A DNA stretch of 64,000 nucleotides from Burkholderiales bacterium (lineage in GTDB: Bacteria; Pseudomonadota; Gammaproteobacteria; Burkholderiales; WYBJ01), in the NCBI GenBank assembly GCA_022841915.1, contig JALHQN010000002.1, forward strand, positions 338,724-402,723, in the 5' to 3' direction. Positions 14,745 through 54,243 of the stretch are shown here, one piece after another. A model generated the notes under the pieces. The model saw only the letters and a list, made by a program, of their open reading frames with translations, was not told the origin of the DNA and made no database searches. Every line of letters begins with the position of its first letter. The first letter of the stretch is position 1. The translations under genes and the position numbers were made by a program.

Positions 14745-14808
14745 TGCAGAGCCTTTCGTCGAGCCTGCGGTCGAATCGGCGATTCGCCTTCGATCGACCG
14801 CAAGCCAA

Positions 14809-15816: not shown

Positions 15817-15842
15817 TGCCTGTGCTCCGTCGACCACGACCG

Positions 15843-16748: not shown

Positions 16749-16960
16749 GAGGGACTCCTCGACGAAGGGTGACTGGGGATGCGATTCGGCGGCCCGATGC
16801 AGCCGCGAAGAGGCGCTCGATGATACACCCCGGCCCAAAGGGTCGAAAACCACAGCAGCGGCCGGGCGGGCGTTCAGGTTTCCAGCTCGGCGGCACTGCG
16901 GTAGCATCCGGGCAACGCCGGCCTTCCCGGCAACCTACGCTGCCATCCCTGGAGAGAGCC

Positions 16961-18346: not shown

Positions 18347-18469
18347 ATCGTGCCCGCAGGGGATATTTCCCTGCGGGAGAGTCTCAGTGTCTTGCAGTGA
18401 ACGGCGTTGCCGGGGACGGTCGACTTGTTCCGTTCCCGGGTCTCATCAACCTCCATCCAAAGATCCGGC

Positions 18470-22918: not shown

Positions 22919-23710
22919 TCAGTCCGGCGCGGCAATTCGTGCGTAGAGATCCGTCCCGTTCAGCCAGTGCTCGTGGTGGCTTTCGTCGCGCACGTTCCAC
23001 GGGTCTGCCGAGAACGCGATATCGGAGGTCTGCGTCAACAGCCAACGGTAGAACCTCGCGACGGTCGCCGGGGCGATGAGCTGGCCCGCATCGCGCAATC
23101 GCCGGTAGTCTTCGGCATCCGGGTACAGCCCCGGATCGGCGGCGATCTGAGCGGCGATCATCGGCGTATCGACAGGGCTCGGCACCGCCGAGCCGACGGC
23201 GATGCCGCGCGGCGCAAGCTCGATCTTCAGGCACTGCTGCAGCATGTGACTCGCTGCTTGGGAGACGCAGTACGCCGTGGCGGACTGCCTGGGGCGCGTC
23301 GCCGAGTTCGAGCCGACGAAGAGCACTCGCGATCCTGGCTGCAGCCAGGGCAGCAGATCGAGCGTGAGGAACAGGCGCGCGTCGACATTGGTATCGAGTA
23401 TGCGCCGCCAAGTGGCGACGGTTATGCTCCCAAGCGGCTCGATGGCATGCATGCCCGCGGCGTGAACGAGGAAGCGCACCCTGTCCGCGGAGCGCAGTGC
23501 GCTGCAGATCCGACTGCGCCCGCTGGTCGTCGAAACATCTGCGGCAACCGGCTCGATCGTGCCCCCCGACATCGATGCAGTCGCAAGCAGCGGATCCAAC
23601 CGCCGACCGATGGCGATCACGCGCAAGGGCAGTTCAGCCAACGACCGGGCGACGGCTCGACCTAGGCCGGAGCCTGCGCCGGTAACGATCGCGATGTCGC
23701 AACGGCTCAT
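22919..23710 (-). CDS. atypical SDR-family oxidoreductase (YxxxQ instead of YxxxK)
   Basis: This is the C-terminal 263 aa of the 411-aa track ORF. ATG 23710 overlaps the LysR stop (ATGA). TGAGSGLG cofactor motif. The catalytic region reads SATAYCVSQAAS (Y147...Q151, codon CAA verified on the minus strand). Confidence 0.75.
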   Translation of the reverse strand: MSRCDIAIVTGAGSGLGRAVARSLAELPLRVIAIGRRLDPLLATASMSGGTIEPVAADVSTTSGRSRICSALRSADRVRFLVHAAGMHAIEPLGSITVATWRRILDTNVDARLFLTLDLLPWLQPGSRVLFVGSNSATRPRQSATAYCVSQAASHMLQQCLKIELAPRGIAVGSAVPSPVDTPMIAAQIAADPGLYPDAEDYRRLRDAGQLIAPATVARFYRWLLTQTSDIAFSADPWNVRDESHHEHWLNGTDLYARIAAPD

Positions 23711-24612
23711 GTTCGCGGCCGCTCCGCGTGCCCGTTCGAACCCCCGAACGGCGCCGTATCCATCGCCAGCCGGATGAACGCATCGACGAGCGAACGATTG
23801 CGGCGAGCAGCGAGGCAGACGACGTAGGCTTCGATGACGATCGTCGCATCCGTGACCTTGAGCAGGCGGATGTTCTCGTGGGGGGCGAACTCCGTTTCGC
23901 CGATCGCGCCGAGCCCGATGCCGCGGGCCACGGCCTCGCGCACGGCTTCGCGGACGTTGATCTCCATGATGGGGCGTATGCGTACGCCCGCCTCGACGAG
24001 CGCCGATTCGAATGCGCGCCGAGTGGCCGAACCGGCGTCGCGCAGGATGAAGCCTTCGCCTTCCAGATCGGCAAGTCGCAGGGATCTGCGCTTGGCCAGG
24101 CGATGGGTATGCGGCACCATGATTCGGACCGGATGTCGATCGTAGAGCATGCAAAAATACCGTGAGTCCGTCACGGCATCGGCAACCACGCCGACATCGA
24201 AGTCGAACCCGGTCAGTCCGGCCATGATGGCATCGCGCGGTGCCACGCTCACCGAGAGTTCGACGCGCGGATAGCGATTGCGAAAAGCCTGGGTCAGCGC
24301 CATGACGTCATGCGGACCGACGGCGCCGAGGCGCAGCCGGCCGCCGTCGTTGCGCCCGATGCCGCGCAGATAGCTGATCGCCTCGGCCTCGTGGCCGTAG
24401 AGACCTTGGGTGATCGTGAAGAGCGATCGGCCCACGTCGGTCAGTTCGACCGTTCGCCCGCGCCGATAAAAGAGTTCGACCTTGAAATAGTCTTCGAGCG
24501 TCTTGATGTGCGCCGAAATCGTCGGCTGACCGACGTTGAGAGCCTTCGCCGCGTGCGTGAAGCTGCTTTGCGAGGCAACCATGTGGAAGGCCTTGAGCCA
24601 CTTTTCGTACAT
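23707..24612 (-). CDS. LysR-family transcriptional regulator (PhnR-like by position)
   Basis: N-terminal wHTH FTHAAKALNVGQPTISAHIKTLEDYF. About 300 aa, divergent from the phnA-like gene. Confidence 0.92.
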   Translation of the reverse strand: MYEKWLKAFHMVASQSSFTHAAKALNVGQPTISAHIKTLEDYFKVELFYRRGRTVELTDVGRSLFTITQGLYGHEAEAISYLRGIGRNDGGRLRLGAVGPHDVMALTQAFRNRYPRVELSVSVAPRDAIMAGLTGFDFDVGVVADAVTDSRYFCMLYDRHPVRIMVPHTHRLAKRRSLRLADLEGEGFILRDAGSATRRAFESALVEAGVRIRPIMEINVREAVREAVARGIGLGAIGETEFAPHENIRLLKVTDATIVIEAYVVCLAARRNRSLVDAFIRLAMDTAPFGGSNGHAERPRT

Positions 24613-24641: not shown

Positions 24642-24654
24642 TCGATTTTATCGA
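24642..24654. promoter_or_regulatory. candidate LysR-type T-N11-A box (TCGAT-N3-ATCGA)
   Basis: tcgattttatcga has 5-bp perfect inverted arms with T-N11-A spacing. It lies 30 bp upstream of the LysR start in the divergent intergenic region. Confidence 0.4.
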
Positions 24655-24670: not shown

Positions 24671-24861
24671 AGTGTCCTGAGTCGGTGATTCGTTGACATT
24701 TTGCCGAACGGTATCGCTACTGCCTCAGCGACAAAAGTGTCGAAATCGTCGTCAGACGCGAAGGAAACCGCAGCCAGGTTGGACACCTGGCGAGGATTTC
24801 CGACAAAGTATGGCGCCGATTCTCGGCGCTTTTGGTCAGCGAATTTCTGACTCAGGACACT
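24671..24861. repeat. pair of perfect 13-bp inverted repeats (agtgtcctgagtc / gactcaggacact) 165 bp apart
   Basis: Read directly: 24671-24683 and 24849-24861 are exact reverse complements. Both lie in the LysR/phnA intergenic region. Confidence 0.9.
24812..24833 (+). terminator. intrinsic-terminator-like hairpin in the phnA leader
   Basis: GCGCCGA-ttc-TCGGCGC (7-bp GC-rich stem at 24813-19/24823-29) followed by TTTT (24830-33). It sits 75 nt upstream of the phnA start. The T-run is present only on the + strand. Confidence 0.35.
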
Positions 24862-24907
24862 GTGGTTGGGCAATTGTGGGCAAGCTACAAAACGAGGAGA
24901 CCACCGC

Positions 24908-26173
24908 GTGGCGACGAGCGACAAGCCGAAGGTCCGGGTGAACGGTACGGAGTATGGTTGGCCCCGCAAGCCGGTGGTGGTCGTGTGTATCGACGGCGGG
25001 GATCCGGCGTATTTCGATCACGGCCTCGCTCACGGTTACATCCCGAACGTCGCCCGCTTCATGAAGCAGGGCTTCAGCGCGGTCGCCGACGGCACCGTGC
25101 CGAGCGTCACGTGCACCAACAACATGTCGATCATCACGGGAGCGCCCGCTTCCGTGCACGGCATTTCGGGCAACTTCTACCTCGATCCTGCCACCGGCGA
25201 AGCGGTGGTGATGACCGGTCCGGAGCTGCTGCGCGGGGAAACCATCTTCGCCCAGTTCGCCCGCGCCGGTGCCCGAATTGCTGCGATCACCGCGAAGGAC
25301 AAACTGCGCCGCCAACTCGGCAAGGGGCTCGACGTCTCGCGCGGGAACATCTGTTTTTCGTCCGAGCACGTCGAGCGGTGCACGCGGGCCGAGCACGGCA
25401 TCGAGAATGCGCTCGAATTCGTCGGCATGCCCAAGCCCGACATGTATTCCATGGCGTTGTCGCTGTTCGTGCTCGAGGCGGGTGTGCGCATTCTCGAACG
25501 CGATCGGCCCGACATCCTGTATCTGTCATTGACCGACTGGGTGCAGCACAAGTATGCCCCGGGTGAGCCGGAGGCGATCGAGTTCTATCGCAAGATCGAC
25601 GACTGCTTCGGGCGGCTCGCCGATCTCGATGCCATCGTGGCGCTCACCGCCGATCACGGGATGAACGACAAGTCCAAACCGGACGGAACCCCCAATGTCG
25701 TCTGGCTGCAAGACATCCTGGACGCCGAGTTCGGCCAGGGCGACACCAAGGTGATATGTCCGATTACGGATCACTTCATCGCGCATCACGGTGCCCTGGG
25801 GGGATTCGTGCGTGTGTACTGCCGCGGCGGACGCGCGACGCCCGAAGCGATCATGCGGCTGATCGAACCCGTGCCCGGTCTGGCGGAGATCTACGACCGC
25901 CACACGGTCTGCAAGAAGTTCGACCTGCCGCTCGATCGCGAAGGCGATGTCGCCGTGATCTCGGCGCGCGACGTATGCGTCGGCGGTTCGGAGAAGGAGC
26001 ATGATCTGTCCGGTCTCGGGGGCCATCGGTTGCGCACCCATGGCGGCGTCACGGAAGCGCGCGTACCGTTCGTCGTGAGCGAGCCGGTGTCGGATGCCCA
26101 CAGGCTGAAAGCGACGAACGGGCCGCTCAACAGCTATCAGCTCTTCGACTACGCGATCAACGGGACGCGGTAG
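24908..26173 (+). CDS. phnA: phosphonoacetate hydrolase (alkaline-phosphatase superfamily)
   Basis: ORF 24866..26173 begins with TTG. GTG 24908, preceded by GAGGAG, is preferred. Blocks match recalled PhnA: VVVCIDGG, VPSVTCTNNMSIITGAPASVHGISGNF, TAKDKLR, YLSLTDWVQHKYAPGEPEA, LTADHGMN, HHGALG, HDLSGL, THGGVTEARVP. Confidence 0.85.
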   Translation: MATSDKPKVRVNGTEYGWPRKPVVVVCIDGGDPAYFDHGLAHGYIPNVARFMKQGFSAVADGTVPSVTCTNNMSIITGAPASVHGISGNFYLDPATGEAVVMTGPELLRGETIFAQFARAGARIAAITAKDKLRRQLGKGLDVSRGNICFSSEHVERCTRAEHGIENALEFVGMPKPDMYSMALSLFVLEAGVRILERDRPDILYLSLTDWVQHKYAPGEPEAIEFYRKIDDCFGRLADLDAIVALTADHGMNDKSKPDGTPNVVWLQDILDAEFGQGDTKVICPITDHFIAHHGALGGFVRVYCRGGRATPEAIMRLIEPVPGLAEIYDRHTVCKKFDLPLDREGDVAVISARDVCVGGSEKEHDLSGLGGHRLRTHGGVTEARVPFVVSEPVSDAHRLKATNGPLNSYQLFDYAINGTR

Positions 26174-26210: not shown

Positions 26211-27305
26211 ATGAGCAGAACCGGCAAGGCGGTCGTCTACGATGCGCCCAATCAGCCCTTCGTCGTCAGGGAATATCCGCTCCGACCGACGCGAAAGGGC
26301 GAAGTGCTCGTGCGCATCAGCATGTCGACGATCTGTCGCTCCGACATCCATTCCTATCAGGGCCATCGGCCCAATCCCTGCCCGGGTGTTCTGGGGCACG
26401 AGATCATCGGCATCATCGAAGAGCTCGGGGACGGCGTAGAGCGCGACATGCGGGGCGACACGCTTGCGGTCGGTGATCGCATCACGTGGAGTGAGTATTT
26501 CATCCCGGGTGCCAACTACTACAGCGACGTGCTCGACATTCCGCAGAAGTCGCCGGGCGTGGACAAATACGGTCACATGGCCGTCGATACCGACCCGCAC
26601 TTCCACGGCGGCTTTGCCGAATACTGCTACATCCTGCCGCAGTCGTGGATACTCAAGCTGCCCGACGTGTTGAGCGACGAGGAAGCGACGCCGGTCAACT
26701 GCGGCGTCGCCACCATGATCGCGGTCACCGAAGCCGCAGCGATCGGCATGGGAGACACCGTCGTCGTGCAGGGACTCGGCCTGTTGGGTCTCTACGGTTG
26801 TGCGATAGCGCGCGCGCGCGGGGCGCGCCTCGTCATCGGGCTCGACACCGTGGCTTCACGCCGGGAATTGGGCAGGCGCTTCGGTGCAGACATCACGCTC
26901 GACCCCTCTGCGATGGATGAGGTCGAACTGGTCAAGCGGGTGCGCGAAGCTTGCCGGCCCGATGGCGCAGACGCCGTGATCGAGGTCTGCGGGTATCCCG
27001 AAGTCATTCCGGCAGGCCTGCAGTTCTTGCGCATCGGCGGGTGCTATACGCTCGGTGGGGTGGTCAACCCGAACTCGATCGTGCGCTTCGACGCCAACGT
27101 GCTCTTGCGCAAGCTCATCACCCTGCGGGGTGTGCACAACTACCACCCGCGTCATCTCATTCAGGCCCTCGACTTCGTCGTTGCCAATCGGGAGCGATTT
27201 CCGTTTCGCGATCTCGTCGACGGCAAGTACGGGCTGAACGAGGTCGGCCAGGCGATGCACGATGCGGCTGAACGCAAAGTGTTGCGAGCGGCAATCGTGC
27301 CCTGA
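26211..27305 (+). CDS. zinc-dependent MDR alcohol dehydrogenase (phosphonate-cluster-associated type)
   Basis: GGGAGGAG ribosome-binding site. Catalytic Zn ligands are Cys42 (ICRSD) and His63-Glu64 (GHE). VVVQGLGLLG Rossmann motif. No 4-Cys structural-zinc loop is visible. Confidence 0.8.
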   Translation: MSRTGKAVVYDAPNQPFVVREYPLRPTRKGEVLVRISMSTICRSDIHSYQGHRPNPCPGVLGHEIIGIIEELGDGVERDMRGDTLAVGDRITWSEYFIPGANYYSDVLDIPQKSPGVDKYGHMAVDTDPHFHGGFAEYCYILPQSWILKLPDVLSDEEATPVNCGVATMIAVTEAAAIGMGDTVVVQGLGLLGLYGCAIARARGARLVIGLDTVASRRELGRRFGADITLDPSAMDEVELVKRVREACRPDGADAVIEVCGYPEVIPAGLQFLRIGGCYTLGGVVNPNSIVRFDANVLLRKLITLRGVHNYHPRHLIQALDFVVANRERFPFRDLVDGKYGLNEVGQAMHDAAERKVLRAAIVP

Positions 27306-27307
27306 GG

Positions 27308-28804
27308 ATGACGATCGCGGAGCAGCCAATGAGCGCGAAAGAACGAAGTATCGTGTCCGAGCCCGACATCGGCTACTCGCCGCGCGGCCTTTACATCGGC
27401 GGGCGTTGGGAGGCGGCAGCCGACGGGCGCACGTTCGCAAGCATCAATCCGTCGACCGGCCGCAAACTCGGTGACGTGCCGTATGCGGCCGCCGCGGATG
27501 TCGATCGTGCGGTGCAGGCTGCAAAAATGGCGTTTCGCGACTGGAGTCGCGTTGGCGTCAAGGAGCGTGCGCGATGTCTGGAACTGCTGGCGAAGCGCAT
27601 TCGCGAAAACCGCAATGAACTCGGCCTGATGGATGCGCTCGACGCCGGCAATGCCGTCGTCGGGATGCGCGCCGACATGGACTGGACGGCCGACAGCCTC
27701 GAGTACTTCGCCGGACTCATCACCGAGATCAAGGGCGAAACGAGTTCGCAAGGGCCGCGACATCTCAACCTCACGCTGCGCCAGCCCTATGGCGTGGTCG
27801 GCAAGATCAATCCGTTCAATCATCCGTTCCGCTTTTGCGCGGAGAAAGCGGCTGCGCCGCTCGCGGCAGGCAATTGTCTGGTGATCAAGGGCTCGGAGCA
27901 GGCGCCCTTGTCGAGCCTGAAGCTCGGGGAACTCTGCGATGGTGTTTTTCCGCCCGGCGTGGTGAATATCGTCACCGGGGATGCCGTGGCGGGCGAAGCG
28001 ATCGTGCGGCACCCGGACGTGCCGCGCATCGGGCTCGTCGGTTCGGTGGATGCGGGCCGACGCGTCGCCATGGCTGCTGCCGAGCAGCTCAAGCGCGTGA
28101 GCCTCGAACTGGGCGGCAAGAATCCGATCGTCATCTTTCCGGATGCCGATCCGAAGAAGGCCGCCGCTGCGGCCCTCAAGGGCATGAACATGAACCGGCA
28201 GGGCCAGTCGTGCAGCTCGACCAGCCGGGTGTTCGTGCATGCTTCCCTGCACAAGGCCGTGCTCGACGAGATCGTCCGACTCGCCCGTGCGTTGCCGGTC
28301 GGTTTCCCCTGGATCGAAAGCAACGAGCTCGGACCGATCGTGTCCGAAAAGCAGTTCCAGCGTGTGATGGGCTACATCGAAGCGGGCAAGCAGGAGGGCG
28401 CCGAACTCGTTACCGGAGGCGCAAGGCCTACGGCGCCGGCGCTTGCAGGCGGCTACTTCATCCAGCCGACGGTGTTCGACGGCGTCCGCGACGCCATGCG
28501 CATCGCGCGCGAGGAAATCTTCGGGCCTGTCGTGGCCGTCATGACGTGGACGGACGTCGACGACGTGTTCTCGCGCGCCAATGCCCTTTCGTACGGTCTG
28601 ACCGCGGCCATCGTGACCAACGATCTGGCGCAGGCGATGGAGGCAGCGCACCGACTCGACGCAGGCTACGTCTGGATCAACGGCAATGGTCGTTACCTCG
28701 GTGCGCCCTATGGTGGTTGGAAGTCGAGCGGTCTCGGTGTCGAAGAGACCTTCGATGAGCTTCTGAGCTACACCCAAATCAAGAACGTTCACATGCGCTG
28801 GTAA
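27308..28804 (+). CDS. NAD(P)-dependent aldehyde dehydrogenase (phosphonoacetaldehyde dehydrogenase PhnY-like by context)
   Basis: ELGGKNP (catalytic Glu) and QGQSCSSTSRVFV (catalytic Cys). It starts 2 nt after the ADH stop. The alternative start at 27329 (MSAKER...) is not excluded. Confidence 0.8.
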   Translation: MTIAEQPMSAKERSIVSEPDIGYSPRGLYIGGRWEAAADGRTFASINPSTGRKLGDVPYAAAADVDRAVQAAKMAFRDWSRVGVKERARCLELLAKRIRENRNELGLMDALDAGNAVVGMRADMDWTADSLEYFAGLITEIKGETSSQGPRHLNLTLRQPYGVVGKINPFNHPFRFCAEKAAAPLAAGNCLVIKGSEQAPLSSLKLGELCDGVFPPGVVNIVTGDAVAGEAIVRHPDVPRIGLVGSVDAGRRVAMAAAEQLKRVSLELGGKNPIVIFPDADPKKAAAAALKGMNMNRQGQSCSSTSRVFVHASLHKAVLDEIVRLARALPVGFPWIESNELGPIVSEKQFQRVMGYIEAGKQEGAELVTGGARPTAPALAGGYFIQPTVFDGVRDAMRIAREEIFGPVVAVMTWTDVDDVFSRANALSYGLTAAIVTNDLAQAMEAAHRLDAGYVWINGNGRYLGAPYGGWKSSGLGVEETFDELLSYTQIKNVHMRW

Positions 28805-28908: not shown

Positions 28909-30486
28909 ATGAACATTCGAGCATGGCGTTCCCGCATCCTGCCTACCACGATCGCCACCTTGGCTTTGCTGGGGGGGCTGTTTCAGTCTGCTGCGGCAAG
29001 CGCGCAGGTGCGCGAGCTTAGAGTCGGTGTCGCTTCGCACGTGCGCGGCCTCGATGTGCAGGAAGAAACCGGCAACAACGCCGCCCAGATGCTCCATCAG
29101 ATCTTCGATACGCTGATCGAGCGCGACAACTTCGCTGCCCCCCTGAAGTTCGGGCCCGGACTCGCCACGAGTTGGCGTATGGTTTCGCCGACCACGATGG
29201 AGCTGACGCTGCGCGACGGCGTCGTGATGCACGACGGCACCACGCTGGACGCCGAGGACGTCAAGTTCTCGCTCGAACGCGTGATCGATCGCAAGGATCC
29301 GCGCTATCGCAGTGCCCACGGCCGGTTCTTCTACAACCTCAAGGGGGTCGATGTGGTCGATCGGCTTACCGTGCGAATCCATACGCACCGGCCGGATCCT
29401 CTGCTCGAGACACTCCTGTCGGCACGCAATGCCGGCATCACGTCGAAGGAGTATGTGCAGAAAATCGGTGCCGACAAGGCGGCGCTGTTGCCGGTCGGCT
29501 CGGGGCCGTACAAGGTCGACAGCCTGCGCCCGAACGAGGTGCTCGTGCTGAGCCGCCACGACAAGTTCTGGGGTCCGCGCCCGCCGTTCGAGCGAATCAC
29601 CTACACGCGCATTCCCGAAGTCGCTGCGCGCGTAACGGCGCTCGTCAATCGCGAGGTCGACTTCATCGTGAACGTGCCGCCCGACCAGGAAGGCGCGGTC
29701 AAACGGGTGAAGGGCTTCAAGCTGGTTGGTGCGCCCTTGCCGGTGTTTCACATCTGGGTGCTCAACATGAGTCATCCCGTCATGGCGAACCCGGAGTTTC
29801 GCAAGGCGCTCAATCTTGCCGTCGATCGCGAAGCGCTGGTGAAGGGCTTGTGGAACGGCAGAGGCCTCGCGCCCAAGGCGCATCAGTTCAAGGAGTACGG
29901 CGAGCCGCTCTTCATGCCGGATCTCAACCACTACCGCTACGATCCGAAGGCAGCGCAGGCGCTGTTGAAGAAGGTCGGCTACAAGAACGAACAGGTCACC
30001 ATCACCTTCTTTCCCGAGTACTACCTTTACGGCAACTACGCTGCCGTCGCCGTCGCCGACATGTGGAAGAAGCTCGGCATCAATGTGAAGATCCAGCAGA
30101 GCGAGCCTGCGTTCAGCAACGCCGACCATACCAAAGTCATGATCCAGCCTTGGTCGAATCCGCTCTACTATCCGGATCCGATGGGGGTCTTCGACACGCA
30201 CTGGTCAGCCGAGAGCTGGGTCACCAAGAAGGGATTGTGGAAGCCCGATCTGCCGGAATGGGCGAGCACCTATGACAAGGCCCGCTTCTCGACAGATTCG
30301 AACGAGCGTCGTGCCGCCTATCGCAAGCTGCTGGAAATGGGCCAGGAGCTGAGCGGTTGGATCGTGCTCTACCAGCCGTACGAATCGTTCGCCATGAACG
30401 AGAACATCGAGTGGCGCATTCCGACAGCCCAACGGCCGTACGAGCTTACGTTCCGCGCCGGTCAGATAAGCTTCAAAGCGAAGTAG
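28909..30486 (+). CDS. ABC transporter substrate-binding protein, family 5 (peptide/opine/nickel type)
   Basis: Sec signal MNIRAWRSRILPTTIATLALLGGLFQSAAASA/QV. 525 aa with DppA/OppA-like architecture. CAGGAGA ribosome-binding site. Confidence 0.85.
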   Translation: MNIRAWRSRILPTTIATLALLGGLFQSAAASAQVRELRVGVASHVRGLDVQEETGNNAAQMLHQIFDTLIERDNFAAPLKFGPGLATSWRMVSPTTMELTLRDGVVMHDGTTLDAEDVKFSLERVIDRKDPRYRSAHGRFFYNLKGVDVVDRLTVRIHTHRPDPLLETLLSARNAGITSKEYVQKIGADKAALLPVGSGPYKVDSLRPNEVLVLSRHDKFWGPRPPFERITYTRIPEVAARVTALVNREVDFIVNVPPDQEGAVKRVKGFKLVGAPLPVFHIWVLNMSHPVMANPEFRKALNLAVDREALVKGLWNGRGLAPKAHQFKEYGEPLFMPDLNHYRYDPKAAQALLKKVGYKNEQVTITFFPEYYLYGNYAAVAVADMWKKLGINVKIQQSEPAFSNADHTKVMIQPWSNPLYYPDPMGVFDTHWSAESWVTKKGLWKPDLPEWASTYDKARFSTDSNERRAAYRKLLEMGQELSGWIVLYQPYESFAMNENIEWRIPTAQRPYELTFRAGQISFKAK

Positions 30487-30519: not shown

Positions 30520-31440
30520 ATGCTGCACTTCCTGCTCTGGCGACTCGGCCGCGCGGCGCTCACGATCGCCCTCGTTCTGGTAATCTGCTTTGTCGCCGTG
30601 CGCGGGACGGGCTCGCCCGTCGACATCCTGTACCCCGAGGATGGGACGCCCGAGCAGCGTGCCGAACTCGAAAAGCAATGGGGGCTCGATCGGAGCCTGC
30701 CGGAGCAGTTCGCGGTCTACGTCGCCAACCTCGCCCGAGGCGAGTTCGGTGTGAGCATCATCGAGCGGCGACCCGTGATCGACGTCTATGCAGAGAAGCT
30801 CGCGCCCACCCTGCAGCTCGCCGGTTGCGCCCTCGTGATCGGCATCGCGGTCGGCATCCCGCTCGGCGTATTGGCCGCACTGCGCCGAGGTCGCGCCACC
30901 GCTCGGCTTGCCATGGCACTGGCATTCACCGGCTACGCCGTGCCCCATTTCATCATCGCCATCGTGCTCATTCTCGTATTCGGCTATCACCTCAACTGGC
31001 TCCCGAGCACCGGGGCAGCGACGCCCGCGCACTACATCCTGCCCGCGATAACGTTGGCGTTGCCTCTCATCGCAGCGATCGCTCGCTACATGCGCAGCAC
31101 CATGCTCGATGTCATGAGTCAGGACTATGTCCGCACTGCGAGGGCGAAAGGGGTGCGTGAACCAAGAATCGTCGCTCTGCATGTGATCCGCAATGCACTG
31201 TTGCCCCTGATCACGGTCCTCGGGCTGGAAGTCGCGGGACTGATCAATGGGTCACTGATCGTCGAAACGGTGTTCTCTTGGCCGGGACTGGGCAAGGTGT
31301 TGACCGGTTCGGTCTCCCGGCGGGATTTCCCGGTGCTGCAGTTCGGCGTGATCGCATACTCGGCGGTCGTCGTGTTCATCAATCTTCTGGTGGACGTCCT
31401 CTATTCCGTGGCCGACCCGCGCGTGCGCGTCGAGGCATGA
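30520..31440 (+). CDS. ABC transporter permease (DppB/OppB-like)
   Basis: 306 aa with six hydrophobic segments. The EAA-type loop DYVRTARAKG is present. Confidence 0.88.
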   Translation: MLHFLLWRLGRAALTIALVLVICFVAVRGTGSPVDILYPEDGTPEQRAELEKQWGLDRSLPEQFAVYVANLARGEFGVSIIERRPVIDVYAEKLAPTLQLAGCALVIGIAVGIPLGVLAALRRGRATARLAMALAFTGYAVPHFIIAIVLILVFGYHLNWLPSTGAATPAHYILPAITLALPLIAAIARYMRSTMLDVMSQDYVRTARAKGVREPRIVALHVIRNALLPLITVLGLEVAGLINGSLIVETVFSWPGLGKVLTGSVSRRDFPVLQFGVIAYSAVVVFINLLVDVLYSVADPRVRVEA

Positions 31441-31450: not shown

Positions 31451-32368
31451 ATGACGACAGCTGCGGACCCCACGGTTTCCCGGATTCCGGCTCCCGCGCC
31501 CGCCGCACCGGAGTTCGCGCTGCGCCGTCGGCTGGCCTTTCGGCGCATGCCGATCAGCATCAAGATCTGTTCCCTGCTCGCACTGGCTTTCGTATTCACC
31601 GCCCTCTTTGCGCCGTGGCTGACGCCTCACGACCCGGACGCAACGCAGATCCTGGCCAAGCTCAAGCCGCCGGCCTGGATGGAAGGCGGCGAGGCGGCCC
31701 ATCTGTTCGGCACGGATCAGCTCGGCCGTGATCTGCTCTCGCGTTGCATCTACGGCGTGCGCGTAAGCGTGGGCCTCGCCCTGTTCGGTCTCATCGTGGG
31801 TTGCCTGATCGGAACGACCCTCGGTGTCGTGAGCGGGCTCCTCGGTGGTCATGTCGATCGCGCCATCATGATGCTGGTCGACGTATTCATCAGTGTGCCG
31901 AACCTGCTCATCGTGCTGGTCGGCATCGCCGCGTTCGGAACCGACATCGTCGTGCTCGTGGTGCTTATCGGCCTGGCGCGCTGGGAATCCTATGCGCGCA
32001 TCGTGCGCGGGCAGGTATTGCAGGTGCGCGAAATGCCCTTCATCGAAGCGAGCCGTGCGCTCGGGGGATCGCACGCGTGGATCGCGATGCGCCATGTGTT
32101 GCCGAACATCGCAGGCCCGTTGATCGTGTTGCTGACGCTCAACTTTCCATCGATCCTGCTGCTGGAGTCGTCGTTGTCCTTTCTCGGCATCGGGGTGCAG
32201 CCGCCGACGGCCTCGCTCGGCAGCATGGTCGGCGACGGACGGGATCATCTGATATTCGCTTGGTGGGTGGCCGTTGCGCCGGCCCTCGTGATCGTCGCCA
32301 TCACGTTCATCGTGCAGATGCTTGGCGACTGGTTGCGCGACGTACTGGACGTGCGCGTCGATGATTGA
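31451..32368 (+). CDS. ABC transporter permease (DppC/OppC-like)
   Basis: 305 aa. The FIEASRALG loop and GTDQLGRDLLSR N-terminal motif are typical of DppC. Confidence 0.88.
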   Translation: MTTAADPTVSRIPAPAPAAPEFALRRRLAFRRMPISIKICSLLALAFVFTALFAPWLTPHDPDATQILAKLKPPAWMEGGEAAHLFGTDQLGRDLLSRCIYGVRVSVGLALFGLIVGCLIGTTLGVVSGLLGGHVDRAIMMLVDVFISVPNLLIVLVGIAAFGTDIVVLVVLIGLARWESYARIVRGQVLQVREMPFIEASRALGGSHAWIAMRHVLPNIAGPLIVLLTLNFPSILLLESSLSFLGIGVQPPTASLGSMVGDGRDHLIFAWWVAVAPALVIVAITFIVQMLGDWLRDVLDVRVDD

Positions 32369-33422
32369 GACATCCGAAGAGCATCGTGGGCATGCGCCCT
32401 CTCGGGTGCTGGAAGTTTGCGACCTGCGCGTACATCTTGCGCACGAGGAGCGCGAGCTGGAGGCGGTTGCGGGGGTCAGCTTTCACGTCGATGCGGGCGA
32501 GACCCTGGCGCTGGTCGGCGAGTCGGGCGCCGGCAAGTCCGTGACGGCGCTGTCGATCATGCGGCTCGTGCGGGCGGGCGGCCATACCGCAGCGGTGCGT
32601 ACCAGCGGACACCTCCGCTTTCGGAATGAGGCTGGCGAAACCGCCGATCTGCTGACATTGGACGATGAAGCCATGCGCGCCGTGCGCGGCCGCTCCATCG
32701 CCATGATCTTCCAGGAGCCGATGACTTCCCTCAATCCGGTGTTGCGGGTCGGCGACCAGATCGCCGAAGGCATTGTCGCTCACGATCGGATCGGCTGGCG
32801 CGCTGCGTCGGTGCGGGCCCTGGAGATGCTCGAGCTGGTGGGTATTCCCGATCCGCGCGCTCGGCAGCGAGCTTTTCCGCACGAGCTCTCCGGAGGGATG
32901 CGCCAACGAGTGATGATCGCCATCGCGCTTGCGTGTCGTCCCCGACTGCTCATCGCCGACGAACCCACCACCGCGCTCGATGTCACGATTCAGGGCCAGG
33001 TGCTGGACCTGATACGCAGACTCCAGTCGGAACTGCGCATGGCGGTGCTTTTCATCACCCACGATCTGGGTGTCGTTGCCCAGATGGCCGATCGAGTCGC
33101 GGTGATGTATGCCGGTCGCATCGTCGAGGAAGCTCCGGTCGAGGCGTTCTTCGAGAGCCCGGCGCATCCCTATTCGGCCGGGCTGCTGCGCTCCATGCCC
33201 AATCCGGATCCGCGGCGGCCGGCACAGGCGCTGCAGCCGATTCGGGGCACGGTCCCGAGTCTGGATCAGGTGCCGCCCGGTTGTGCTTTCCAGCCTCGGT
33301 GCGATCGCGCCGCGGGCGAGGATTGCACGCAAAGGCGCCCGGTGCTGGAGCCATTCGGCGAGCGACGTGCCGTGCGATGCTGGCGCCCTCACCCGGTGTT
33401 CACGACAGGAACCGGCAAGTGA
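32361..33422 (+). CDS. ABC transporter ATP-binding protein (DppD-like)
   Basis: ORF 32322..33422. ATG 32361 overlaps the permease stop by 8 nt. Walker A GESGAGKS, signature LSGGMRQR, and a C-terminal oligopeptide-type extension. Confidence 0.9.
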
Positions 33423-34414
33423 GTTCAGACCCGCTCATCCGTGCCGAGTCGCTGACTACGGCCTTTACGGTCGGCCGGTCGTTCATGAAGCGCGCGGTTC
33501 TGCGTGCGGTCGACGAGGTCAGCCTGGATATTCGCGCGAACGAAGTGCTCGCGTTGGTGGGCGAATCCGGGTCCGGGAAGACGACGTTCGGGCGCTCGCT
33601 CCTGCGTCTGGTCGAACCCACGGCGGGCGCCATCTGGTATGACGGTCGCGACATTACCCACTTGCCGGGCGACGAGATGCGTGCGCTTCGTCGGCAGATG
33701 CAGATCGTGTTCCAGGATCCGTTCGCCTCCCTGGATCCGCGCATGAGCGTCGGCGAAATCGTCGGCGAGGGTCTGCGCATCCACGGCATGGGCGCAGCAT
33801 CGGTACGGGCGCAGCGCGTGGCGAACGTGCTCGAGCAGGTGGGGCTGGGTGCAGACCACGCGCGCCGCTATCCGCACGCCCTCTCGGGCGGTCAGCGGCA
33901 GCGCGTCGGCATCGCCCGGGCCCTCGCGGTGGAGCCCCGCTTCATCGTCGCCGACGAGCCCGTGTCCTCGCTCGATGTTTCCATTCAGGCGCAGATTGTC
34001 CAACTCCTCGTCGAGTTGCGCCGGCGCCTCGGGCTGACGATGCTCTTCATCACGCACAACCTGGGTGTGGTTCGTATCCTCAGCGACCGGGTGGCCGTGA
34101 TGTACCTGGGTCGGCTGGTGGAGATTGCGCCCACTGCCACGCTCTTCGAACGACCGGCGCATCCCTACACGCGCAGCTTGCTTGCGAGCATACCGTTGCC
34201 CGATCCCAAGGCGCGGCGACCGCTTGCCGCGCTCCGCGGAGAACTGCCGAGCGGGCTCAACCCGCCGAGCGGCTGTGTGTTCCGTACCCGGTGTCCGCAC
34301 GCGATCGAAGCGTGCGCGAGCGCCCGCCCTGAACTGCGAGCACTCGGGCCCGGACATCAGGCGGCATGCTCACGACCTGAGATCACCGCGCTTCCCTTCC
34401 AAGGCTTTGCATAG
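33419..34414 (+). CDS. ABC transporter ATP-binding protein (DppF-like)
   Basis: In the frame of track ORF 32933..34414. GTG 33419 (residue 163) overlaps the DppD-like stop (GTGA). Walker A GESGSGKTT and signature LSGGQRQR. Confidence 0.88.
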   Translation: MSSDPLIRAESLTTAFTVGRSFMKRAVLRAVDEVSLDIRANEVLALVGESGSGKTTFGRSLLRLVEPTAGAIWYDGRDITHLPGDEMRALRRQMQIVFQDPFASLDPRMSVGEIVGEGLRIHGMGAASVRAQRVANVLEQVGLGADHARRYPHALSGGQRQRVGIARALAVEPRFIVADEPVSSLDVSIQAQIVQLLVELRRRLGLTMLFITHNLGVVRILSDRVAVMYLGRLVEIAPTATLFERPAHPYTRSLLASIPLPDPKARRPLAALRGELPSGLNPPSGCVFRTRCPHAIEACASARPELRALGPGHQAACSRPEITALPFQGFA

Positions 34415-34427: not shown

Positions 34428-35960
34428 ATGGCAAGACCGGAAATGAACGTCCTGCTCATCGTCGTCGATCAATGGCGCGGCGACACCTTGGGTGCTTTGG
34501 GGCACCCCTGCGTACGAACGCCGAACATCGATCGGCTCGCCGCCGAAGGCGTGACCTTCACCCGGCACTACGCGCAAAGCTCGCCGTGCGGCCCGAGCCG
34601 GGCATCGATGCTCACGGGCCAGTACTTGATGAATCATCGGGTCATTACCAACGACACGCCGACCGCCGCGCATCGCAAGACGATGGCGCGGTTCATGCGC
34701 GAGGCCGGTTACGAACCCGCGCTCATCGGCTATACGACGACGGTACCCGATCCGCGCGTGGCGCATTCGAACGATCCGCGCTTCACGACCAACACCATCG
34801 CCGAAGGCTGGAACATCGTTCGCGACTTCGAGGGCGAGCGCGAGCACTACATGGCCTACCTGTCCGGACTTGGCTACGACATCCCGAAGAAGTATGTCGA
34901 CATCTTCCAGCCCCCGCACGGAGCTGACGAATCGCTGAGGCTCGCCCCGTCTCCGATCAAGAAGGAGCACAGCGAGACGGCCTGGTCGATCGATGCCGCT
35001 CTCGATTACATCCGCATCCGCGCGGACGAACCGTGGTGTCTGCATCTGGGCACGTACCGGCCGCATCCGCCCTTCATGGCGCCGACGCCCTACGATGCGA
35101 TGTACGATCCGGCCGCGATGCCGGCTCCGCTGCGCGCACCGAACCTCGCGGCAGAGAAGCGCGTGCATCCGTTGACGCACCTGCTGCTGGAACACGTCAA
35201 AGCATCGAATGCCGTGCGGCATTGGTCCGGACTCGCCTCGGCGATCGATCTCGAAGGCATCGCAAAGATCAGGGCTGCCTACTATGCGTTGTGCACCGAG
35301 GTGGACGATCATCTCGGGCGCGTGTTCGAGTTGCTGCGCGCGACCGGCCAGGACGAACGCACGCTCGTCATCCTCACGTCCGATCACGGCGAGCAGCTCG
35401 GCGATCACTTCATGGTGTCGAAGCGGGGCTACTTTCCGCAGTCGTATCACATTCCGCTGATCGTGCGCGATCCGCGCGCGGCGGCGAACGGCACGCGTGG
35501 GCGCAAGTTCGCTCACTTTACCGAGAACGTCGATGTGCTGCCGACGATCCTCGACTGGCTGGGAGAGCCCTTGCCGCATCAGTTCGACGGCCATACGCTC
35601 ATGCCCTTGCTCAGAGGGGAAGTGCCCGGACGCTGGCGCAAAGCGGCACGGTACGAGTACGACTTTCGCGACATGGCGAGCCGCAAGGCTGCTGCCGCAC
35701 TCGGCATCGATCCCGACGCGACGTCGCTGGCCTGCGTGCTCGACGACGACTACGCCTACATCCATTTCGCCGAATTGCCGCCGCTGCTATTCGATTTGAA
35801 GGCCGATCCGCACTGGCTCAACAATGTGGCTGAAGAAGCGCGCTATCAACCGGTCGCCCTGAAGTACGCGCGTCAAATGCTCGATTGGCGGCTCGCTTAT
35901 GCCGACCGAACACTGACCGGGCTCGCGATCAGCAGCGACGGCCTCAGGGGGCATGCGTGA
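34428..35960 (+). CDS. sulfatase-fold hydrolase, phosphonate monoester hydrolase/phosphodiesterase (PMH)-like
   Basis: ORF 34125..35960. Start is ATG 34428 (residue 102), with no signal peptide. LLIVVDQWRGD (Asp-Gln metal site), SSPCGPSRAS (CxPxR formylglycine motif, Cys54), TSDHGE, and the tail FDLKADPHW...WRLAYADRTLT. Confidence 0.75.
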   Translation: MARPEMNVLLIVVDQWRGDTLGALGHPCVRTPNIDRLAAEGVTFTRHYAQSSPCGPSRASMLTGQYLMNHRVITNDTPTAAHRKTMARFMREAGYEPALIGYTTTVPDPRVAHSNDPRFTTNTIAEGWNIVRDFEGEREHYMAYLSGLGYDIPKKYVDIFQPPHGADESLRLAPSPIKKEHSETAWSIDAALDYIRIRADEPWCLHLGTYRPHPPFMAPTPYDAMYDPAAMPAPLRAPNLAAEKRVHPLTHLLLEHVKASNAVRHWSGLASAIDLEGIAKIRAAYYALCTEVDDHLGRVFELLRATGQDERTLVILTSDHGEQLGDHFMVSKRGYFPQSYHIPLIVRDPRAAANGTRGRKFAHFTENVDVLPTILDWLGEPLPHQFDGHTLMPLLRGEVPGRWRKAARYEYDFRDMASRKAAAALGIDPDATSLACVLDDDYAYIHFAELPPLLFDLKADPHWLNNVAEEARYQPVALKYARQMLDWRLAYADRTLTGLAISSDGLRGHA

Positions 35961-37591
35961 ACGCGCCGTCGTTGCACCCGGTTGCGCGCCGGCTCACGAG
36001 CGTCCTCGGCGGCATGGCCCTCGCGGTCGCCATGTTTTCTGTGCCGCAGGCAGAAGCGCAACTCCTCGCTTCGGGGGATGTCGGCCCCGACGGGGCGGTG
36101 GTTTGGGTGCGGCCCGAGCGCAGCGGTACTTATCAGCTTGAAGTCGCCCTGGATGCGGCGTTCTCCAAGGTGCAGCAGCGCGTGCCGATCGCTGTCGGCG
36201 ATTCGACCGGCTTGACCGGGCAGACCACGCTCAATGGCCTGATGGCCTCCACGCGCTATCACTATCGCTTGCGCGACGAGAAGGGGCCCTTGCCGGCCCG
36301 GGGTGTCTTCACGACAGCGCCGAGGGATGGCGTGCGGGCACCGCTCACGCTCCTCTTCGGCGCGGATCTCGGCGGGCAGGGTTACGGCCGCCTGCGGGCC
36401 GATGTCGGGTTGCCGGTGGACGGCTGGCCGATCTTCAAGCCCATGCTGGCCGAGAACGCGGACCTGTTTCTCGCGCTGGGTGACATGATCTACTCGGATC
36501 GACCGATCGGCACCAATGCGCCCGATCGGGAGTATCCCAAGGGCAACGACTACCAGATTCCGAAACCAGGGCCGGGGTTCGTTGCAGGGGTGGACGACTT
36601 CAGGCGCGATTGGCACTACCATCGCAGCGACCATCGTCTCGATGCCTTCTTGCGCGCTACGCCCATGATCGCGACGTGGGACGATCACGAGATCGTCAAC
36701 GACAGTGGCGGGCCGGAGCTGGTGAAGGGCCCCAACGCGCAGGAGCTGGCACGCGATGCCCGACTGAGCCAGGGCGATCCGTCGCGGCCGCGAGGGGAGT
36801 TCATGCCCTGGAGCACGACGAAGGATCCTCGCGGCCGCCGCAAGTCCGTGTTCTTCAATCCCGAATTGTTTCGGGCGGGACGGCAGGCGATGTTCGAGTA
36901 CAACCCCATTCGAGCCGAACCGGATCCCTCGGGGGCCTTCGAGCGTCGGCTCTACCGCAGCGTGCGCTGGGGCGCACATGCCGAAGTCATCATGCTCGAC
37001 ACGCGCTCGTACCGTGATCCCCGTTATCGAGTCGATAGCGATCAGTCGCCCAAGACCATGCTCGGCGAAGCGCAGAAGCGATGGCTGCTCGAGCGCCTGG
37101 AGAAATCGGACGCCACGTGGAAGATCGTGGTCAGCAGCGTGCCGCTGTCGGTCGAAGGCGGCAACGAGAAGGATCCGCAGGGGCACGGCTACCGCGATGC
37201 ATGGGCAAACGTGACCCCGGACAATCCCTACGGCTACGGGCGCGAACTGAAGCAGATCGTCTCGCACATCCTGACGAAAGGAATCCGCAACGTCGTCTTC
37301 CTCACCGGCGACAAGCACTACTCGAACGTCTTCGGCTACGACCCGGATGCCGATGGCGTCATCGACTTTCACGAGATCAACGTCGGCCCGTTGCGCGCCG
37401 GTCGCGGTTCGGGGAAGCTGCCGTTCGATACCAGTCTGAATCCAACCCGGCTGTACACCGATGCGGGCAGTGCGGCATTCGTCTATGGGTGGGTCCGCAT
37501 CGATCCGGCATCGGGCCGCTTCGAAGCGGAGCTGCGCGACGTGGACGGAGCGACGCGTTCGGGCTCTCGACTGGTGTTGAATCCGAGGTAG
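35957..37591 (+). CDS. phoD: PhoD-family alkaline phosphatase/phosphodiesterase, exported
   Basis: ORF 35885..37591. GTG 35957 overlaps the upstream stop (GTGA). The N-terminus VARRLTSVLGGMALAVAMFSVPQAEA/Q looks like a Tat/Sec signal. TWDDHEIVND (PhoD WDDHE motif) and FLTGDKHYS are present. The start is uncertain (alternative Met at GGMALAV). Confidence 0.8.
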   Translation: MNAPSLHPVARRLTSVLGGMALAVAMFSVPQAEAQLLASGDVGPDGAVVWVRPERSGTYQLEVALDAAFSKVQQRVPIAVGDSTGLTGQTTLNGLMASTRYHYRLRDEKGPLPARGVFTTAPRDGVRAPLTLLFGADLGGQGYGRLRADVGLPVDGWPIFKPMLAENADLFLALGDMIYSDRPIGTNAPDREYPKGNDYQIPKPGPGFVAGVDDFRRDWHYHRSDHRLDAFLRATPMIATWDDHEIVNDSGGPELVKGPNAQELARDARLSQGDPSRPRGEFMPWSTTKDPRGRRKSVFFNPELFRAGRQAMFEYNPIRAEPDPSGAFERRLYRSVRWGAHAEVIMLDTRSYRDPRYRVDSDQSPKTMLGEAQKRWLLERLEKSDATWKIVVSSVPLSVEGGNEKDPQGHGYRDAWANVTPDNPYGYGRELKQIVSHILTKGIRNVVFLTGDKHYSNVFGYDPDADGVIDFHEINVGPLRAGRGSGKLPFDTSLNPTRLYTDAGSAAFVYGWVRIDPASGRFEAELRDVDGATRSGSRLVLNPR

Positions 37592-47753: not shown

Positions 47754-48893
47754 TTACTTCTTCGGCTCCGGCTGCTCGATGAAGCGCTCGCGCACTCGCA
47801 GCAATCCGCCCAGCGTCTTCGTTTCGACGATGTAGACCCACTGATTCATGGTCTTCTCTCGCGCCAGCTGCGCTTCGAGGCGCTTCATTCGCTCCTCGTG
47901 TTCCTTGTCGCGCTTGGCCTTGTCTTCCGGCGTCTCGTCCTTGCGGGGCACCCGCTCGGTCTTCTTGAACTCGCCGGTCACTGCCACCGTGAAGTACATG
48001 TGGGTGTCGTCGTTCGGCTTGGGCGCGATCCTGATTGCGTAATTCCAGCCGTCGAACGTGTCGATGTTGATGCGGGTCGCGCGCTCCAGCGCTTCCGGCT
48101 TCATCGGCGCCACGTCGACGAACGCAAGTTGGTAGAGCGCATTGGTCGTGGAGAGTGCGGCCGAGATATCGGTCTTCTGGCCGGGTTTGGCACCCTCGAG
48201 CACGAAATCGCCCATCTCGGAGTCGCGTGCCAGTGCGTAGCTTGCCTCGGGCACGCCGCTGTCGAGTTCGATGCGCTTGACGCTGTCGACCCGGATGAAC
48301 TCCTTCGAGATCCACTTCACGGGCTTGGGCTCGATGTTGTTCATCGGGTCGGAGACGACCAGCACCGTCTTGAGGTCGGATCCGACCAGCAGGTAGCGCC
48401 CGTCGGGCTGGCCCTTGTCGAACCCCTTCACTTGCAGCGGCGGTTTGCCCAGGTGCTTCTTGCCCAGGAACAGCGTGGCGAGCGGCTTGCCGTCCTTGCC
48501 GCGGAACTCGAGCAAGGTCGAGGCGCCTTCCTTGGCATCGGGCGCAGCTACATCGACGCGCGGGCGCTGCTCTTCGCTGATCGGCTCGCTCTGGACGACT
48601 TTCCATTCGCGTGCCTTGAAGGTCAGCTCGGACACCAGCGGCGGATCCGCCGGGTAGCCGCCCCGCTCCTTGATGCCCCACACCTTGCCGTCGTAGACGA
48701 GGTTCAATTCCTCGTCCTTGTGCTTGATGTGGATGTGCGCGATATCGCTGACCTGCAACTCGGGCAGCACTTTCTGGCCGAGGCGCGAATCCTGACGCTG
48801 CCAGGCCTCCGTATCGCGCTTGAACATGGTCACGCCGATGCCGCCGATGACCAGCACCAGTATCAGAAGGATCAGGAGATGCTTGCGGCTCAT
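47754..48893 (-). CDS. DUF4340 domain-containing protein
   Basis: N-terminal anchor MSRKHLLILLILVLVIGGIGV. It is the last gene of the Gld-like ABC operon and its ATG overlaps the GldG-like stop (ATGA). Confidence 0.75.
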   Translation of the reverse strand: MSRKHLLILLILVLVIGGIGVTMFKRDTEAWQRQDSRLGQKVLPELQVSDIAHIHIKHKDEELNLVYDGKVWGIKERGGYPADPPLVSELTFKAREWKVVQSEPISEEQRPRVDVAAPDAKEGASTLLEFRGKDGKPLATLFLGKKHLGKPPLQVKGFDKGQPDGRYLLVGSDLKTVLVVSDPMNNIEPKPVKWISKEFIRVDSVKRIELDSGVPEASYALARDSEMGDFVLEGAKPGQKTDISAALSTTNALYQLAFVDVAPMKPEALERATRINIDTFDGWNYAIRIAPKPNDDTHMYFTVAVTGEFKKTERVPRKDETPEDKAKRDKEHEERMKRLEAQLAREKTMNQWVYIVETKTLGGLLRVRERFIEQPEPKK

Positions 48894-53768: not shown

Positions 53769-53809
53769 TTTCGAACGGGGACAGCCTGGCTTGGCTGTCC
53801 CCGACCGCG

Positions 53810-54241
53810 TCAGCCTCGCTGGCTGGCGTAGGTCCCGCGGCCGACCGCCAACAGGCGGCCCTGCTCGTCCATCACGTCGATGTCGATGACGGCCGACGTC
53901 TTGCCGGCGCGCCGGACACGGGCGATGCCCACCACCGAATCGCCGATCGCCGGACGCAGGTAGTCGATGCGCAGGTTCATGGTGGGCACACCGCCGCCCA
54001 CCTGCATGCCGATGGCGAAATCGCCGACCGTGTCGATGAACGAGGCGAGCGGGCCGCCGTGAAACTGCTTCGTTCCCAGGCGGCGCTCGAGTTCCGGCCT
54101 GAGCGGCATGCGCACTTCGAGTTCGCCCTTGTCGTGATCGAGCGCGATCACCTTGAGGCCGAGGAAGGAGATGAAGGGCGAAGCATCGAAGATGGCCTGT
54201 ACGCCCGCTACGTCGAGTTTCTGGGGAGTCGATTCGCTCAT
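53810..54241 (-). CDS. PaaI-family hotdog thioesterase
   Basis: This is the C-terminal 143 aa of the 371-aa track ORF. ATG 54241 lies 2 nt after the upstream stop. HGGPLASFIDTVGDFA motif. Confidence 0.8.
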   Translation of the reverse strand: MSESTPQKLDVAGVQAIFDASPFISFLGLKVIALDHDKGELEVRMPLRPELERRLGTKQFHGGPLASFIDTVGDFAIGMQVGGGVPTMNLRIDYLRPAIGDSVVGIARVRRAGKTSAVIDIDVMDEQGRLLAVGRGTYASQRG

Positions 54242-54243
54242 GG

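Follow-up and report, generated by a model that had tools for sequence, protein, structure and literature searches.

A phosphonate monoester hydrolase relative in a predicted operon for the use of esterified 2-hydroxyethylphosphonate

In a 64,000-nucleotide stretch of DNA from a Burkholderiales bacterium (GenBank assembly GCA_022841915.1, contig JALHQN010000002.1, positions 338,724 to 402,723; hereafter the window), a gene for a relative of the phosphonate monoester hydrolases (PMHs, the PMH/PehA family) lies among genes of phosphonate catabolism (Table 1). Between 24866 and 37591 every gene lies on the forward strand and either overlaps its neighbor or is separated from it by no more than 104 nt, in the order PhnA, a zinc alcohol dehydrogenase (ADH), an aldehyde dehydrogenase (ALDH), the binding protein, two permeases and two ATPases of an ATP-binding cassette (ABC) importer, the PMH and PhoD. 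The largest gap, 104 nt, falls between the ALDH gene (end 28804) and the binding-protein gene (start 28909). The ATG of the PMH gene lies 13 nt past the stop of the upstream ATPase gene, with a plausible AGGAA ribosome-binding site 12 nt upstream, and the GTG start of PhoD overlaps the PMH stop (GTGA). Our promoter and terminator scan returned no promoter-like sites, and terminator-like sites at chance level; we infer that the block is co-transcribed. This layout agrees with a preliminary description of the sequence, which had placed the PMH gene between an importer and PhoD, in one operon with phnA; the importer, upstream, is an Opp/Dpp-type ABC importer, PhoD lies downstream, and the same-strand block opens with PhnA.

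Table 1. Genes and sites of the PMH locus (window coordinates).
Feature	Coordinates	Strand	Basis
LysR-type regulator, divergent	23707..24612	-	Pfam HTH_1, LysR_substrate; 63% orthologue adjoins phnA in L057
Palindrome TCGATTTTATCGA (T-N11-A form), lysR-phnA intergenic	24642..24654	.	Sole window match, 0.17 expected
PhnA, phosphonoacetate hydrolase	24866..26173	+	NCBIfam TIGR02335
PbfG-like Zn alcohol dehydrogenase; predicted reaction, 2-hydroxyethylphosphonate (HEP) to phosphonoacetaldehyde	26211..27305	+	TIGR03366, residue spacing
Aldehyde dehydrogenase, presumed PhnY role (phosphonoacetaldehyde to phosphonoacetate)	27308..28804	+	Pfam Aldedh
Periplasmic AccA-like substrate-binding protein, family 5, signal peptide	28909..30486	+	Pfam SBP_bac_5; best PDB match AccA
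ABC permease 1	30520..31440	+	Pfam BPD_transp_1
ABC permease 2	31451..32368	+	Pfam BPD_transp_1, OppC_N
ABC ATPase 1; likely start ATG 32361 overlaps permease gene end	32361..33422	+	Pfam ABC_tran, oligo_HPY
ABC ATPase 2; start uncertain, ATG 33377 one candidate	33377..34414	+	Pfam ABC_tran, oligo_HPY
Cytoplasmic T-type PMH/PehA-family hydrolase, Cys54 formylglycine motif	34428..35960	+	Translation, Pfam, NCBIfam, PDB ranking, alignment, tree
Exported PhoD-family phosphodiesterase/phosphatase	35957..37591	+	Pfam PhoD, PhoD_N

The PMH open reading frame (ORF) encodes 510 residues and carries the motifs VVDQWR (12-17), C54-G-P-S-R (54-58) and SDHGE (318-322), with FDLKADPHW (455-463) and WRLAYADRTLT (487-497) in its C-terminal part. 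Translation and Pfam reproduced the coordinates and motifs of the preliminary description together with the absence of a signal peptide, for which there is no room because the Sulfatase domain (PF00884, 1.3e-51, residues 7-379, accompanied by SGSH_C) begins its first beta-strand at residue 7. Against NCBIfam the protein scored 627.8 bits over its whole length with the PehA model (NF045661), 234.7 bits with arylsulfatase and 177.6 bits with choline sulfatase, each below the respective cut-off (900 bits for the PehA equivalog, 481 and 433); it is a member of the family, yet not a PehA equivalog by the NCBI criterion. Among PDB structures, RlPMH (pRL90232, 2VQR, 464 bits) and BcPMH (2W8S, 463 bits) ranked highest, with the further PMH structures 4UPH and 4UPK at 405 and 329 bits, compared to 217 bits for the dimeric arylsulfatases SpAS1 and SpAS2 and about 100-120 bits for choline sulfatases. 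The protein is about 45% identical to RlPMH and to BcPMH, and 37.5% to SpPMH, which is of the D type; residues 5-506 align with RlPMH 32-538, and the C-terminal tail aligns with both RlPMH and BcPMH, PMH tetramers being held by a C-terminal hairpin.

All 12 catalytic positions that we compared are identical to RlPMH (D14, Q15, C54, P56, R58, N75, Y102, T104, H213, D319, H320 and K332), and the same pattern is found in 97 of the 100 sequences in an alignment of family members; the C, P and R of the CxPxR motif are invariant across the PMH family alignments. The identity of this pattern to that of RlPMH places the protein among the T-type PMHs of the alkaline phosphatase superfamily, the subgroup that contains the most proficient PMHs (PMC5488252). 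Its metal-ligand set comprises D14, D319 and H320, with Q15 at the Asp-B position, consistent with the Asp, Asp and His ligands of PMHs, in which His stands in place of the Asn of classical sulfatases (PMC5488252, PMC12421950). The preliminary description had taken the Asp-Gln pair as a mark of PMHs. Q15 is indeed present, but of the residues that define the group, which include the formylglycine (fGly) made from CxPxR, the Gln at Asp-B and the His at Asn-A are shared with the 'new' dimeric arylsulfatases; PMHs are told apart from these by a Tyr at the Lys-A position and a Thr or Asp at the His-A position (PMC5488252). The discriminating residues are thus Y102 and T104, which align with RlPMH Y105 and T107.

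In a neighbor-joining tree the window PMH falls inside the PMH clade, in a mostly betaproteobacterial, metagenome-derived group (clade I, 53-93% identical); it does not group with arylsulfatases or choline sulfatases. The sister of clade I is clade II, that of canonical PehA with RlPMH and BcPMH, and this sister position accounts for the score below the NCBI equivalog cut-off. Among the matches listed, the closest are 73% identical for GTDB representatives and 93% for collection proteins. Nine positions are fixed differently in clade I and clade II PMHs, and three of these lie 2-5 residues from catalytic residues (T79 versus L, V106 versus T and P337 versus D, clade I against canonical PehA), making residues 79, 106 and 337 candidate specificity determinants. 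Together, family and structure scores, the 12 catalytic residues and tree position bear out the earlier assignment to PMH/PehA, and by these measures the protein is supported as a genuine PMH relative.

The genes at the head of the block would fit a pathway for HEP. PhnA scored 534.9 bits with TIGR02335, above the equivalog cut-off of 407.55; its real start is likely GTG 24908, behind GAGGAG. The ADH has TIGR03366 ('phosphonate catabolism associated alcohol dehydrogenase') as its top family at 285 bits, with the runner-up family at 109. PbfG was recently described as oxidizing HEP to phosphonoacetaldehyde (September 2026; PMC13576164), and seven of its residues (C45, S47, R56, H66, H124, C166 and N298), predicted to bind the catalytic zinc and HEP (PMC13576164), are matched by spacing, at constant offsets, by C42, S44, R53, H63, H122, C164 and N296 of the window ADH. 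Clusters dedicated to HEP are recognized by the presence of pbfG together with phnY-phnA and the absence of phnW (Piazza et al. 2026, PMC13576164). The window ALDH is nearest to betaine-aldehyde dehydrogenases and is kept with PhnA and the ADH in three related loci, L001 (82%), L057 (71%) and L083; this conserved clustering and position suggest a PhnY-like role. In nature HEP itself is believed to be present chiefly in ester form, in polysaccharides (PMC13576164, PMC5649143) and in dissolved organic matter. The operon encodes a C-P hydrolase and no cytoplasmic phosphomonoesterase.

A scan of GTDB species representatives yielded 80 PMH loci, with at least about 550 genomic matches, and metagenomic homologues added more loci. 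Among these we found the PMH gene linked to phosphonate genes in four arrangements. The window and L083 (PMH 85% identical) share a LysR gene followed by PhnA-ADH-ALDH-ABC-PMH-PhoD. L001 (MAG VGIF01; PMH 73%) has the order of the window with a PhnD-PhnC-PhnE-PhnE transporter inserted between PMH and PhoD. L086, a metagenome-assembled genome (MAG) of Rubrivivax (JAEUPC01; PMH 59%), has ADH-PhnDCEE-ABC-PMH-PhoD, and L057, an alphaproteobacterial MAG (VGDO01; PMH 47%), has a LysR gene followed by PhnA-ADH-ALDH-TRAP transporter-PhoD-PMH-ABC. Three further loci (L002, L003 and L012) show ABC-PMH-PhoD or PMH-PhoD on contigs that stop before the upstream genes, and PhoD lies downstream of PMH in these three as in L083 and L086. 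SpPMH, the D-type enzyme, is encoded on a Ruegeria megaplasmid with neither an importer nor phosphonate genes nearby and is not informative here. Because gene order is shuffled yet membership is retained, these arrangements argue for functional coupling. The link of the PMH gene to phosphonate catabolism noted in the preliminary description is therefore real and recurs across beta- and alphaproteobacterial MAGs, and since it recurs in four arrangements, the suggestion drawn from operon context that natural phosphonate esters may be the substrate is a reasonable one.

Two observations concern individual relatives. In L083, the closest long relative, the phnA region (476-1741) is called as three short ORFs, which could reflect frameshifts, an assembly error or a pseudogene. 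In L086, three proteins are encoded past PhoD (13256-19112), ahead of a TRAP transporter: one of 457 aa that has no Pfam family, one of 766 aa with a sulfatase domain, and an alkylsulfatase (Lactamase_B and Alkyl_sulf).

The importer next to the PMH gene offers a second line of evidence on the ligand. Compared to PDB structures, the window binding protein, whose signal peptide ends in AAASA before a Q, scored 228 bits with AccA and 125 bits with the second family. AccA of Agrobacterium recognizes its ligands, agrocinopines and agrocin 84, by a pyranose-2-phosphate diester motif, and in the acc operon import by AccA-AccBCDE is followed by cytoplasmic diester cleavage by AccF, with AccG as a phosphatase (PMC4526662). 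The residues that hold the phosphate in AccA (N54, Y375, Y376 and S419) correspond to N56, Y371, Y372 and S416 in the window protein. In AccA numbering, Y375, Y376 and S419 are invariant in all 21 alignable PMH-linked binding proteins and N54 is kept in clade I. Given these conserved phosphate clamps, the ligand is predicted to carry a phosphoryl or phosphonyl ester. The pyranose anchors N284, E434 and W178 are replaced by V279, H431 and R173, and a shared set of pyranose-site replacements (W178R, N284 to V, I, L or M, W423Y and E434H) is found in the window, L001, L012, L083, L084, L086 and L057. This signature tracks clade I and the phosphonate-linked loci rather than the PMH clade, although L084 has it without phosphonate genes or PhoD. 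The window binding protein thus appears to be an AccA relative with a different ligand.

The pairing of PMH with an AccA-like importer extends beyond clade I. On pRL9 of Rhizobium johnstonii 3841 (L081 8995-16207), the genes that follow RlPMH encode two ATPases, two permeases and a binding protein that is likewise closest to AccA (273 bits; runner-up family 109). All-against-all clustering of ORFs in the 8 kb around PMH placed importer genes at 36-49 of 84 PMH loci, and beyond them no real gene family recurs in this census; most of the remaining large clusters consist of ORFs without a Pfam match that are antisense or off-frame shadows, as high-GC DNA produces them. We found no mention of the pairing in the literature.

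Together, these results lead us to favor, if by a modest measure, a reading in which the PMH would supply the ester-cleaving step of a self-contained operon for the use of esterified HEP, proceeding from import through cleavage to mineralization. The AccA-like binding protein and ABC transporter would take up a small monoester of a phosphonate, R'-O-P(O)(O-)-CH2CH2OH, which might derive from a phosphonoglycan or from dissolved organic matter as a fragment. In the cytoplasm, the hydrated aldehyde of fGly54 would attack phosphorus with the help of a single metal ion on Asp14, Asp319 and His320, releasing an alcohol and free HEP; fGly attack at the metal site is the established mechanism of PMHs (PMC5488252). 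The PbfG-like dehydrogenase would then oxidize HEP to phosphonoacetaldehyde, the ALDH would convert this to phosphonoacetate, and PhnA would cleave the C-P bond to yield acetate and phosphate. The exported PhoD would probably trim larger phosphoester or phosphonoester material in the periplasm, and the divergent LysR regulator would control the block. We infer both the identity of the HEP-ester substrate and the role of PhoD from the gene content.

Several points weigh against this reading. Characterized PMHs hydrolyze phosphodiesters about as well as phosphonate monoesters, so family membership alone does not select phosphonates; a recorded PEH specificity likewise spans both classes (PMC5649143). 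Most PMH genes, namely those of clade II with RlPMH included, adjoin an AccA-like importer and no phosphonate genes, and within clade I the L084 locus consists of ABC-PMH only, again without phosphonate genes. The related loci are all MAGs or metagenome contigs. Loss of the pyranose anchors makes the non-phosphorus part of the ligand unpredictable, the ADH score of 285 bits is below the TIGR03366 cut-off of 328, the ADH lacks the four-Cys structural zinc site of characterized PbfG (and of threonine dehydrogenases), and the ALDH is not of the PhnY family (TIGR03250, 230 bits against a cut-off of 636).

These points lend most weight to the main rival, in which the PMH is a general phosphodiesterase and the ABC-PMH-PhoD genes scavenge phosphate from imported phosphodiesters (for example agrocinopine-like sugar phosphodiesters), sharing a phosphorus-acquisition island with the phosphonate genes. 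This reading fits the family-wide pairing of PMH with an AccA-like importer, usually with no phosphonate genes alongside, as well as the known ligands of AccA, which are phosphodiesters, and the activity of RlPMH and BcPMH as efficient phosphodiesterases. It does not readily explain what becomes of the product: diester cleavage leaves a phosphomonoester, whereas the operon has no cytoplasmic phosphatase and PhoD has a signal peptide. It also leaves unexplained the repeated linkage to C-P cleavage genes and phosphonate transporters, which is kept in four arrangements and in L001 flanks the PMH on both sides. The binding-protein signature NFR-x-F/Q-YYSY-x-H, moreover, follows clade I and the phosphonate-linked loci (also L084) and not the PMH clade. 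On balance we regard a general phosphodiesterase as unlikely here, if the alternative to be taken most seriously. Less probable still, in our view, is that the PMH-importer and PhnA-ADH-ALDH modules are independent neighbors without shared function. The 104-nt gap between the ALDH and binding-protein genes could hold an internal promoter, and L084 shows the PMH-importer module standing alone; against mere adjacency, the linkage recurs in shuffled order across beta- and alphaproteobacteria, and repeated chance adjacency is unlikely because phnA is rare. We give very little credence to the idea that the protein is an arylsulfatase or choline sulfatase mislabelled as a PMH relative. The Sulfatase fold and CxPxR motif are compatible with such an identity, and L086 has two other sulfatase-type genes past PhoD, but T104 at His-A and Y102 at Lys-A form the PMH signature, sulfatase models and structures give much lower scores, and the protein sits in the PMH clade. 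At the level of sequence, a sulfatase identity is thereby already largely refuted.

Formylglycine enzymes depend on maturation of the motif cysteine, and the preliminary description had remarked that the window contains neither a formylglycine-generating enzyme (FGE) nor an anaerobic sulfatase-maturating enzyme. Pfam analysis of nearly every plausible gene in the window (short stretches such as 53768-54244 excepted) detected no FGE-sulfatase or radical-SAM domain, and regular-expression scans of the window for FGE and radical-SAM motifs gave off-frame matches only. We also used as a probe a 152-aa human FGE fragment, an exact match to PDB 1Y1E, with which bacterial FGEs are recovered at 1e-56 to 1e-64; neither the window's six-frame ORFs of at least 80 aa nor 86 related PMH loci gave a match at E<=1 (1.43 Mb in total, of which the loci make up 1.37 Mb). 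The remark thus holds as a statement about the window, but it carries no information, since none of the 86 related loci has a nearby FGE and its absence is the norm for the family. When PMHs are produced in E. coli, an unidentified enzyme of the host matures part of the protein (PMC5870055). Cys54 is presumably converted to formylglycine in the window protein.

As in the window, a LysR gene adjoins phnA in L083. The palindrome TCGATTTTATCGA recurs in L083 at 400-412, in the equivalent lysR-phnA intergenic position, and was not found in L001 or L057; it is a possible LysR box. A GC-rich hairpin, GCGCCGATTCTCGGCGC followed by TTTT, lies at 24813-24833 on the coding strand of the phnA leader and could be an attenuator, or nothing. 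At the other end of the block, the N terminus of PhoD reads VNAPSLHPVARRLTSVLGGMALAVAMFSVPQAEA followed by Q, with the signal peptide ARRL...AEA.

Elsewhere in the window, the gene at 15843-16907 on the reverse strand matches Pfam PEP_mutase and ICL. We rejected it as a phosphonate-forming PEP (phosphoenolpyruvate) mutase: it carries the KRCGH isocitrate/methylisocitrate-lyase motif and adjoins a PrpD homologue (16751-18346), and is most likely a methylisocitrate-lyase-type enzyme. Near the window start, a TauD/TfdA-family dioxygenase (718-1644) and a TauE/SafE sulfite-exporter homologue (5482-6432), with a large FAD-oxidase/4Fe-4S fusion protein between them (2282-5659), hint at sulfonate metabolism. 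A 384-aa ORF on the reverse strand (47754-48908) has a strong coding signal (GC3, the GC content at third codon positions, 0.87) and no Pfam family; it lies directly downstream of genes for an ABC_transp_aux/DUF7088 protein and an ABC-2 transporter, with which it is probably co-transcribed.

Since 2008 PMHs have served as a textbook case of catalytic promiscuity, and to our knowledge no natural substrate of the PMH/PehA family has ever been identified, nor does anyone know its cellular role; in the PMH-focused literature we found no paper that assigns a natural substrate. If the proposal of an esterified-HEP operon is true, it would provide what we believe to be the first physiological substrate for the family. 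The HEP pathway described in 2026 begins from free HEP and leaves the release of HEP unexplained; the window locus and its rearranged relatives would connect this gap with that of the PMH substrate. They also offer a concrete set of genes to clone (the binding protein, PMH, ADH, ALDH and PhnA), with which the question of the natural substrate becomes directly testable, and the family-wide pairing with AccA-like importers is a lead to the ligands that PMHs meet. A broader proposition can be put forward more tentatively, and we would hold it at somewhat less than even: that the operon is a complete pathway for esterified HEP, with AccA-like importer, T-type PMH, PbfG-like dehydrogenase, ALDH and PhnA inside the cell and PhoD outside, and that the importer-PMH pair is a widespread device for the uptake and cytoplasmic cleavage of phospho(no)diesters.

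The locus can be set beside several known systems. Like RlPMH and BcPMH, the window PMH is cytoplasmic, aligns over its full length and adjoins an AccA-like ABC importer; it differs from them in sequence (identity of only about 45%), in clade, its own being a separate, betaproteobacterial one, in the gene order of the importer and in its setting, a phosphonate-catabolic operon with PhoD. The locus resembles the Agrobacterium acc operon in joining a family-5 binding protein for a phosphoryl ester to ABC uptake and, as predicted here, cytoplasmic ester cleavage. It differs in that the hydrolase is a formylglycine PMH, that C-P cleavage is the chemistry that follows, and that the pyranose-contacting residues of AccA are replaced (W178R, N284V, W423Y and E434H); among the operon genes we saw no counterpart of AccF or AccG.

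The pbfG-phnY-phnA clusters (PMC13576164) share with the window a Zn-ADH, which in the window matches the PbfG residues by spacing, an aldehyde dehydrogenase and PhnA, without PhnW, as in the pattern published for HEP clusters. In the window, however, the ADH is without the structural zinc site, the ALDH falls outside the PhnY type, and the set is extended by an ester importer, PMH and PhoD. Hosts of those clusters are Actinomycetota, Planctomycetota, Bacteroidota, Gemmatimonadota and Verrucomicrobiota, whereas the window, L001, L057 and L086 are proteobacterial; the main text of PMC13576164 makes no mention of esterases, sulfatases, PhoD or ABC importers, and Proteobacteria are not among its PbfG hosts.

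The idea of releasing phosphonates from esters was partly anticipated. PEH- and PhoD-like enzymes were proposed in 2017 to cleave the methylphosphonate and HEP esters of marine dissolved organic matter (PMC5649143), and in marine Alphaproteobacteria pmh genes were reported in 2026 to adjoin phnW-phnX and phnW-phnY-phnA clusters (PMC13608971). Both resemble our case, the one in the PMH/PhoD idea and the other in a PMH gene beside hydrolytic phosphonate pathways, but they concern association or speculation and involve 2-aminoethylphosphonate (AEP) pathways or unlinked genes. The window, by comparison, has a predicted HEP-specific pathway, an AccA-like importer and a linkage that is conserved across rearranged loci. 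New here are a clade of PMHs separate from canonical PehA, its place in a HEP-type operon and the AccA-like nature of PMH-linked importers.

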